A stretch of DNA of 64,000 nt from Octopus vulgaris. Lineage: Eukaryota. A program made the translations under genes and the position numbers. The DNA lies in the NCBI GenBank assembly GCA_951406725.2, contig OX597835.1, positions 14,446,001 through 14,510,000 on the forward strand, read 5' to 3'. Below the pieces are notes generated by a model. It saw only the letters and a program-made list of their open reading frames with translations. It did not search any database and had not been told where the DNA came from. Position 1 is the first letter of the stretch. The number at the start of each line of letters is the position of its first letter. Of the stretch, positions 2,354 to 57,510 are shown one piece after another.

Positions 2354-2357
<4 letters not shown>

Positions 2358-3239
2358 ATAACAAAGGGTAAAATTAATTAATTAAGAAGTAATCATTAAT
2401 TTCACCAAGTACAATTCGGCATGAAAAAAGGACCATTTCATGGTAAACTTAAGTAATACTAAATAATTAGGGCTCAGCAAAGATTTGCATTACCACATGC
2501 CGAAGTTTAGAAATAGCAGCCAAAAAACGTTAGCTATTTCTTCTACTTTAAAAAGGGACTCCCAGAAAAACCAAAATACTTGAAAGCAATCCACACAGGC
2601 AGAGAGAAGTAACGAAAATCAATCAATATCTGGTCACCTATGGACGAGCATTTCGGAATTAGGTTGGAATGAAGAATATAAAATTATACTTTACCAACCG
2701 TTTTCCTCTTCAGCATAGGACCCCATCAATAATTAAATATTGAAATATTAAATTCGAAGGTACTGGAATAATTGAACATATCTCTCCACCTAACGGTATC
2801 CGACAGATAATATTCAGTGCCAGTACCGCCGAATTCAAAACATGAATGAGGTTCAATTACCCTCCCCTGCCTGTCCTCGTGTGTCTACAAGTAAACTACT
2901 ACAGGAAAAAATTTGTAGCTTGTTATCAGGGAGAAAATTCTATTATCAGTAATAAAGGGTAAAATTAATTAATCAAGAAGTAATCAATAATTTAACCAAG
3001 TAGAATTCGGCATGAAAAAAGGACCATTTCATGGTAAACTTAAGTAATACTAAATAATTAGGGTTCAGCAAAGATTTGCTTTACCACATGCCGAAGTTTA
3101 GAAATAGCAGCCAAAAAACGTTAGCTATTTCTTCTACTTTAAAAAGGGACTCCCAGAAAAACAAAATACTTGAAAGCAATCCACACAGGCAGAGAGGTAG
3201 AAGTAACGAAAATCAATCAATATCTGGTCACCTATGGAC
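2354..3239 (-). mobile_element. Retrozyme/Penelope-like non-coding element, about 1.5 tandem units of a 594-bp monomer, flanked by (TA)n
   Basis: 2354-2645 repeated nearly identically at 2948-3239 (period 594); contains the hammerhead at 2632-2723; (TA)n on both sides. Confidence 0.75.
2632..2723 (-). ncRNA. Type I hammerhead ribozyme
   Basis: Minus strand: CCTATG-CTGAAGA-GGAA.GGTTGG..CCAACC.TTCC-GAAA-TGCTCG-TC-CATAGG; perfect 6-bp stem I, weak stem III; cleavage predicted between 2643 and 2642. Confidence 0.75.
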
Positions 3240-3277
<38 letters not shown>

Positions 3278-56927: not shown

Positions 56928-57510
56928 GGCGGCGAGCTGGCAGAATCGTTAGCACACCGGGCGAAATGCTTAGCGGTATTTCGTCTGCCGTTACGTTCTG
57001 AGTTCAAATTCCGCAGAGGTCGACTTTGCCTTTCATTCTTTCGGGGTCGATAAAATTAAGTACCAGTTACGCACTGGGGTCGATATAATCGACTGAATCC
57101 GTTTGTCGGTCCTTGTTTGTCCTCTCTGTGTTTAGCCCCTTGTGGGTAGTAAAGAAATAGGTATTTTGTCTGCCGTTACGTTCTGAGTTCAAATTCCGCA
57201 GAGGTCGACTTTGCCTTTCATCCTTTCGGGGTCGATTAAATAAGTACCAGTTACGCACTGGGGTCGATGTAATCGACTTAATTCGTTTGTCTGTCCTTGT
57301 TTGTCCTCTCTGTGTTTAGTCCCTTGTGAGTAGTAAAGAAATAGGTATTTCGTCTGCTGCTACGTTCTGAGTTCAAATTCCGCCGAGGTCAACTTTGCCT
57401 TTCATCCTTTCGGGGGTCGATGAAATAAGTATTAGGTATGTACAGGGGTCGATGTAATCGACTAGTTCCCTTCCCCACAAATTTTCAAGGCTTTGTGCCT
57501 AGAGTAGAAA
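56928..57510 (+). mobile_element. SINE family C with three internal units
   Basis: Head, units near 57000, 57185 and 57370, tail TTGTGCCTAGAGTAGAAA. Confidence 0.9.

Follow-up and report, generated by a model that had tools for sequence, protein, structure and literature searches.

A hammerhead ribozyme repeat of Octopus vulgaris that lacks coding capacity and carries probable insertion footprints of Penelope-like elements

The insertion described here occupies positions 2354–3239, on the minus strand, of a window of 64,000 nucleotides from the Octopus vulgaris genome, and is a single-armed, 5'-truncated 1.5-mer of a 594-nt unit. Read on the ribozyme strand, it starts with the GTC of an upstream cut site (3237–3239), which is preceded by GAG and a (TA)n tract (3243–3275) and has no catalytic core before it. 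It then runs through one full cut-to-cut unit (2643–3236; 594 nt with 35% GC), the sequence predicted for the monomer or circle, to a type I hammerhead (2637–2719), and ends in another (TA)n tract (2317–2354) representing the 3' junction and the target. An earlier note on this DNA had proposed the same layout (start at GUC 3239–3237, a 594-nt unit, hammerhead GUC at 2645–2643, end in (TA)n) and a recurrence of 2354–2645 at 2948–3239, and both were borne out. In local alignment the tandem arms (~2347/2354–2645 and ~2941/2948–3239) are identical at 288 of 294 aligned bases, with small indels, and the period from GUC to GUC is exactly 594 nt. The reported absence of an ORF also holds: the longest stop-to-stop frame wholly within the element has 52 aa, so that it lacks coding capacity and any RT or GIY-YIG ORF. 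This frame (2884–2726) was considered as an ORF remnant and dropped by eye; it is not kept in sister families.

In the unit coordinates used below, 1 is the first base after the cut. The 3' part of the copy contains, on the minus strand, a structured cis element of ~200 nt (2354–2550, unit ~92–290), common to the sister families at ~70–75% identity. Two end sites, S1 and S2, lie within this region and are separated by a 'tail' of ~100 nt (2354–2455, minus strand). S1 (unit 190) corresponds to window position 2456 and is found a second time at 3047, in the upstream copy; the window copy terminates at S2 (unit ~287–293). Any target-site duplication would be indistinguishable within the (TA)n microsatellite. 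It should be mentioned that sister family 2 has left a remnant in the window (32724–32975), with two arms (S1 + S2) and a cis element ~73% identical. SINE-like units of 184 nt and 418 nt are arrayed in tandem at 27175–28201, 47557–48225 and 56975–57463.

The hammerhead is composed, on the minus strand, of stem I (2719–2714 paired with 2642–2637, CCUAUG/CAUAGG), the core segments CUGAAGA (2713–2707), GAAA (2654–2651) and GUC (2645–2643), and an unusually long stem II (2706–2655); the predicted cut lies between 2643 and 2642. An Rfam search gave no hammerhead at the gathering score and none at E ≤ 10, and the assignment rests on motif, fold and covariation. By motif and predicted fold, the type I hammerhead is found once per repeat unit in the families. 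Across 89 motifs, the core pair 3-8 was C3-G8 in 80, U3-A8 in eight, U3-G8 in one and C3-A8 in none (Fisher p 1e-10, with the families treated as independent though they are not). Sister family 2 has U3-A8 instead of C3-G8, a core variant that has been reported in Schistosoma PLEs (PMC4209133). Stem I positions 2–5 show compensatory double changes between families, and the cleavage triplet is GUC, GUA or GUU. The motif search demanded four of six stem I pairs, which inflates the rates of stem I pairing, and it left the 3-8 pair unforced. The hammerhead thus appears to be under selection across the families.

The palindrome of stem III, which according to PMC4209133 permits hammerhead cleavage as a dimer, is perfect in 62 of the 89 motifs. 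In the window copy it is broken by two bases (2650 and 2647) that differ from the family, and the predicted self-dimer reaches -5.9 kcal/mol versus -14.7 kcal/mol for an intact copy. Because of these substitutions and the weaker predicted self-dimer, the ribozyme of the window copy is probably impaired. Two reports weigh against the overall reading given below: for Xenopus retrozymes, eight of nine dimers are reported to show no cleavage (bioRxiv 10.64898/2026.07.22.740005), and hammerhead cleavage is unnecessary for the insertion of an anole PLE in vitro (PMC11167929). Elsewhere in the window (18416–18474) minimal hammerhead-like motifs (CTGATGA...GAAAC) stand back to back, on opposite strands; the repeat holding them is unrelated and was also found at another locus, L221.

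The unit belongs to a dispersed family, designated here family 1. Searching the 2.8-Gb genome with its DNA gave 60 matches from 40 scored candidates, and exact patterns gave 114 (unit 1–23) and 311 (unit 97–123) matches. The insertion set comprises nearly all places among the 100 matches listed per pattern: deduplication by exact sequence left 172 clusters and, after seven segmental duplicates were subtracted, 165 insertions, among them 77 single-armed, 87 two-armed divergent and one other. A superfamily core pattern has 3,227 exact matches; the sister families that it takes in number at least three, with units of ~545–600 nt, and include family 3 (unit 545–565 nt; 2,111 pattern matches). Head-to-tail units are dispersed, with at most ~1.6 units per arm in family 1 and at least 12 in family 3. 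Complete hammerheads in tandem are present at family 1 locus L005 and at family 3 loci; at the window locus there is a single complete hammerhead and no such pair. Our literature search returned no account of family 1; it may already be catalogued, e.g., in Repbase or Dfam, which lay outside that search. The words ribozyme and hammerhead are absent from the main text of a recent octopus repeat annotation (PMC13282606).

In total 251 terminal arms were analysed for their 3' ends. Of these, 219 finish at S1 (176–197) or S2 (278–298), and 94 at exactly unit 190. TA lies no more than 20 nt from the end in 211 of them, and a 3' TA tract was found in 64 of 71 single arms, versus a 19% background. 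Both sites, ~+190 and ~+287 from the cut, are preceded by an ACCCT motif. The fixed boundary of family 1 is the 3' end at these two internal sites and not the cleavage site, since 102 of the 117 arms that reach the cut run more than 25 nt past it. In the anole PLE, two internal RNA sites serve as starts of reverse transcription, the genomic ends coincide with them, and the target is cut and extended on both strands (PMC11167929). Two-site 3' ends are the tail signature of PLEs and so point to the footprint of a non-autonomous PLE; together with variable 5' truncation and (TA)n targets, they constitute the PLE insertion features found in family 1. The reverse transcriptase likely binds and starts in the cis element. 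The earlier proposal of a reverse transcription footprint primed at a TA tract gains support, the unit being apparently retrotransposed, TA-targeted and ORF-less.

The 5' ends were studied in 170 pattern-matching arms with intact 3' ends, the set from which the 117 come. Five of the 117 halt exactly at +1 versus 0.5–0.8 expected, a comparison in which BLAST-derived arm ends are uncertain by a few bases; the excess is weak if both arms of L107 are taken as a single case (p = 0.008, or ~0.08 after ten intervals). In a wider interval around the cut (-24..+11) there is no excess of 5' ends (19 versus 15–23 expected). Six arms reach the upstream cut; three halt within -3..+9 (the window copy, L002 and L015) and three run through. 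The clearest pile-up at the cut was seen in sister family 2 (L061–L090), where five of 13 arms halt at -2..+4, an interval picked after the data were seen; in a second sample of that family, six of six further arms read through. In family 3 only about two arms halt near the cut. At L107 (970–1658) two arms each begin exactly at +1, with ~300 nt of unrelated sequence between them; in front of each are short stretches that copy the unit's first bases in reverse complement. The earlier note took an end at the self-cleavage site as the footprint and recommended mapping the ends of all copies against the GUC; the 3' ends proved fixed and a small 5' excess at +1 exists, but the 5' ends are mostly scattered and most arms read through. 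Probably, a minority of templates had a ribozyme-cut 5' end, and the window copy may be derived from one of them. The three extra bases at its 5' end, GTC, could reflect read-through, chance or templated addition.

What form the template took can be approached through the longer arms. Twenty of the 170 family 1 arms exceed one unit, and their junction at the cut has no scar. Family 3 has one arm that spans six cuts and an array, bounded by gaps (L362), that spans at least 12; units at these two loci show no substitutions among themselves and three to four from the nearest other locus, and those of L363 and L364 differ by 3–9 substitutions. Multimers with locus-identical units would be expected if reverse transcription rolled round a circle, a process proposed for retrozymes (PMC7229834, PMC7761336). 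Uncut multimers or template jumping can also produce the family 3 multimers, and local homogenisation or a collapsed assembly can likewise make the units of a locus identical, the 12-mer lying between assembly gaps. In four runs presumed to be RNA, the contigs extend over most of the unit, with uneven coverage, and are uninformative on strand, ends, level and circularity. We rate an RNA circle as the template as slightly better than an even bet. It should be mentioned that family 3 looks young, with multimers of identical units (L362 854–7806, L378 1354–4659, L363 and L364), and is the strongest candidate for a retrozyme that is active.

The same element could instead have been copied without any circle, from a linear uncut or partly cut read-through template or by template jumping between linear monomers. 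The slight 5' pile-up at the cut requires linear cut RNA, unprocessed RNA serves the anole PLE as its main substrate (PMC11167929), and none of the 170 family 1 arms exceeds 937 nt. However, no long family 1 array occurs among the matches listed (100 of 114), and without one a linear-only lineage would be eroded by repeated 5' truncation. The locus-specific identical multimers of family 3 also speak against a purely linear route, as do the circular RNAs demonstrated for other animal retrozymes (PMC7229834). We regard linear copying as a serious possibility, at somewhat under even odds.

The two-armed insertions follow a strict pattern. In family 1, all 71 with both ends intact combine S1 with S2; the remaining 16 of the 87 have one end disrupted, and none is S1+S1 or S2+S2. 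Independent site choice would yield ~46% mixed pairs. Scoring by eye gave 20 of 20 S1+S2 in family 2 (sampled mostly on S2, so that S1+S1 could be missed) and 24 of 25 in family 3, the exception being L379 with S2+S2. In an ORF-bearing Neptune-like family of the same genome, also scored by eye, the tail is on exactly one arm in 23 of 23 intact two-armed insertions, and the rule thus holds in 138 of 139 cases over four families. A tail often present at only one end has been noted for PLEs (PMC3846280, PMC8557442). Our literature search, with supplements and subscription papers outside it, returned no count of tail pairing, no paired-priming model and no strict paired-end rule.

The arms of one insertion agree at 473 of 499 diagnostic sites (subfamily alleles) versus 282 expected, and 32 of 84 arm pairs have a rare variant common to both arms. 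On the opposing side, the within-insertion distance stays at or below that to the nearest other locus for tandem pairs in only four of 24 cases and for arm pairs in 18 of 84. The anole PLE protein is predicted to be a dimer (PMC11167929). The strict combination of end sites suggests paired priming, in which a dimer would prime the two strands on RNA from a single source, using one site for each. Alternatively, a single priming event followed by cDNA fold-back, with endonuclease trimming that makes the tail, might produce the two-armed forms. Self-priming and EN-mediated resolution have been proposed (PMC3846280, PMC8557442), and one arm is contained within its partner in 30 of 66 simple two-armed insertions. 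In the other 36, neither arm is contained, so each arm needed an RNA template and a single fold-back is insufficient; moreover, both strands are extended by the anole protein, which starts at two sites on the RNA (PMC11167929). Fold-back is therefore improbable as the general source of two arms, and paired priming remains our preferred explanation.

The search for a helper started from five PLE seeds, which we assign from motifs to Neptune-like (L078 and three more) and Nematis/Hydra-like (L017) groups. It reached several Neptune-like and Nematis/Hydra-like families, some with open frames of 800–870 aa. None of the PLE families reached by these seeds shares the unit or the cis element, and their 3' ends are unrelated; the 3' ends were hardly reached for the last Neptune-like seed, and the genome holds more PLE families than were sampled. 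Where inspected, PLE ORF fragments near family 1 copies are separated from them by TA tracts or other sequence and look like incidental nesting, which bears on the earlier note's proposed check for flanking full-length Penelope ORFs. Mobilisation of family 1 by a PLE is what we infer, from insertion footprints only.

Several PLEs of this genome deserve mention in their own right. A Neptune-like PLE (L146–L181, L382–L401) is abundant and young, with open frames of up to ~870 aa, a tail of ~40 nt and, by eye, a minimal U3-A8 hammerhead-like motif in its 3' region. The Nematis/Hydra-like PLE L212 (1271–3904) has an 806-aa open frame behind a hammerhead; a Pfam search of this ORF returned no family. 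An older, related family (L186–L200) has a hammerhead with a long stem II and a GGTTGG/CCAACC hairpin resembling the one in family 1, and no other detectable homology. A near-identical PLE family (L412–L421) carries, 3' of a GIY-YIG match, several repeats with ATTGG and TGACGTC motifs, which we take to resemble CCAAT/CRE promoter arrays.

It could be argued that the insertion is only the pseudo-LTR partial tandem of a 5'-truncated autonomous PLE whose ORF lies beyond reach. All PLE end features are indeed present, but upstream of the hammerhead the unit itself follows again and no ORF does (L005, L008 and L016 cross two cuts), sister families contain pure multimers, and the nearby ORF fragments are set off as described; we consider this very unlikely. 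An ordinary local tandem duplication with GTC at its end by chance (a three-base match, 1 in 64) is refuted, since the duplication is not unique to this locus and the same 1.x-mers with the same 3' ends occur at many unlinked loci.

Comparison with known systems places family 1 closest to the animal non-LTR retrozymes. Like them, it consists of ORF-less tandem units with one type I hammerhead per unit and low GC, is dispersed as monomers to multimers and co-occurs with PLEs. It differs in a stem II much longer than 4 bp, in a conserved cis element with two fixed 3' ends and in a unit larger than their circles of 170–400 nt. A 2020 review states that animal retrozymes lack any conserved motif indicating a helper (PMC7761336). 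The earlier note called the monomer long for a metazoan retrozyme; 594 nt does exceed the 170–400 nt of circles shown experimentally (Cervera and de la Pena, 2020, PMC7229834), but it falls inside the 51–972 bp spanned by retrozyme units in a 2026 preprint (Li, Clavereau and Pollet, bioRxiv 10.64898/2026.07.22.740005). The preprint argues that animal retrozymes are non-autonomous PLE derivatives. With its single complete hammerhead, the window locus falls outside the definition of 'active' given there, which asks for two complete ones in tandem.

With the EN+ PLEs (Poseidon PAc, PMC11167929; Penelope, Neptune, Nematis, Hydra and Naiad, PMC8557442, PMC3846280), family 1 shares 5' truncation, partial tandems, an inverted 5' arm, an optional tail, (TA)n targets and a hammerhead with palindromic stem III; the U3-A8 core variant recurs in the superfamily. 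In contrast to them, it has no RT/GIY-YIG ORF, its tail is ~100 nt instead of 30–40 nt, the element as a whole forms a single unit that can be circularly permuted, and it has no sequence match to the PLE families sampled in this genome. Non-autonomous Chlamys elements such as MRC1 are likewise ORF-less PLE derivatives with pLTRs and head-to-tail multimers. As described, they generally resemble autonomous families at the 3' end and most are without hammerheads (PMC8557442), whereas family 1 matched none of those sampled and conserves its hammerhead. Family 1 is best filed as a putative new animal non-LTR retrozyme, i.e., a non-autonomous PLE. The earlier note had offered retrozyme and Penelope partial tandem as alternatives; both fit, and they describe the same thing.

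We therefore read the window copy as a 5'-truncated, ORF-less hammerhead repeat, likely inserted into (TA)n by a PLE reverse transcriptase with GIY-YIG endonuclease (probability roughly 0.8); it is an ordinary and probably inactive family member. The family, its two 3' ends, TA targeting, scattered 5' ends, seamless read-through and covarying hammerhead are read from the sequence. The hammerhead would cut multi-unit transcripts, probably as a dimer formed through its palindromic stem III, and the resulting 594-nt monomers would likely circularise. A PLE protein would bind the 200-nt element and nick (TA)n, and reverse transcription would start inside the RNA at S1 or S2 and go round the circle, or along an uncut multimer, until the enzyme dissociates. 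On a minority of templates, linear RNAs that had been cut, it would run off at +1, and the window copy may derive from one of these. Where both strands were extended, one would likely start from S1 and the other from S2 on RNA of the same source, which would give the inverted two-armed form. That a superfamily of ribozyme circles of 545–600 nt is copied by a Penelope-type dimer, which primes both strands of a cut (TA)n target on one RNA, with one subunit per start site, and rolls round the circle, is a more tentative proposal that we put below even chances.

PLE mobilisation of animal retrozymes and circles as templates are published hypotheses based on co-occurrence and pLTR homology. Family 1 adds PLE-specific insertion footprints on an ORF-less ribozyme unit. 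These family-level footprints are the valuable part, as they open the helper, the circle and paired priming to direct test; the window locus itself is ordinary. The 200-nt cis element with its two start sites can be used directly in the existing in vitro PLE assay, and the near-perfect S1+S2 pairing makes of the remark that tails are 'often at only one end' a rule for insertion by a PLE dimer that can be put to the test. If a dimer does copy the circle, the genome would record both the life cycle of a retrozyme and a strict rule of one start site per strand, and this rule would explain the long-unexplained inverted-arm-plus-tail structure of all PLEs.
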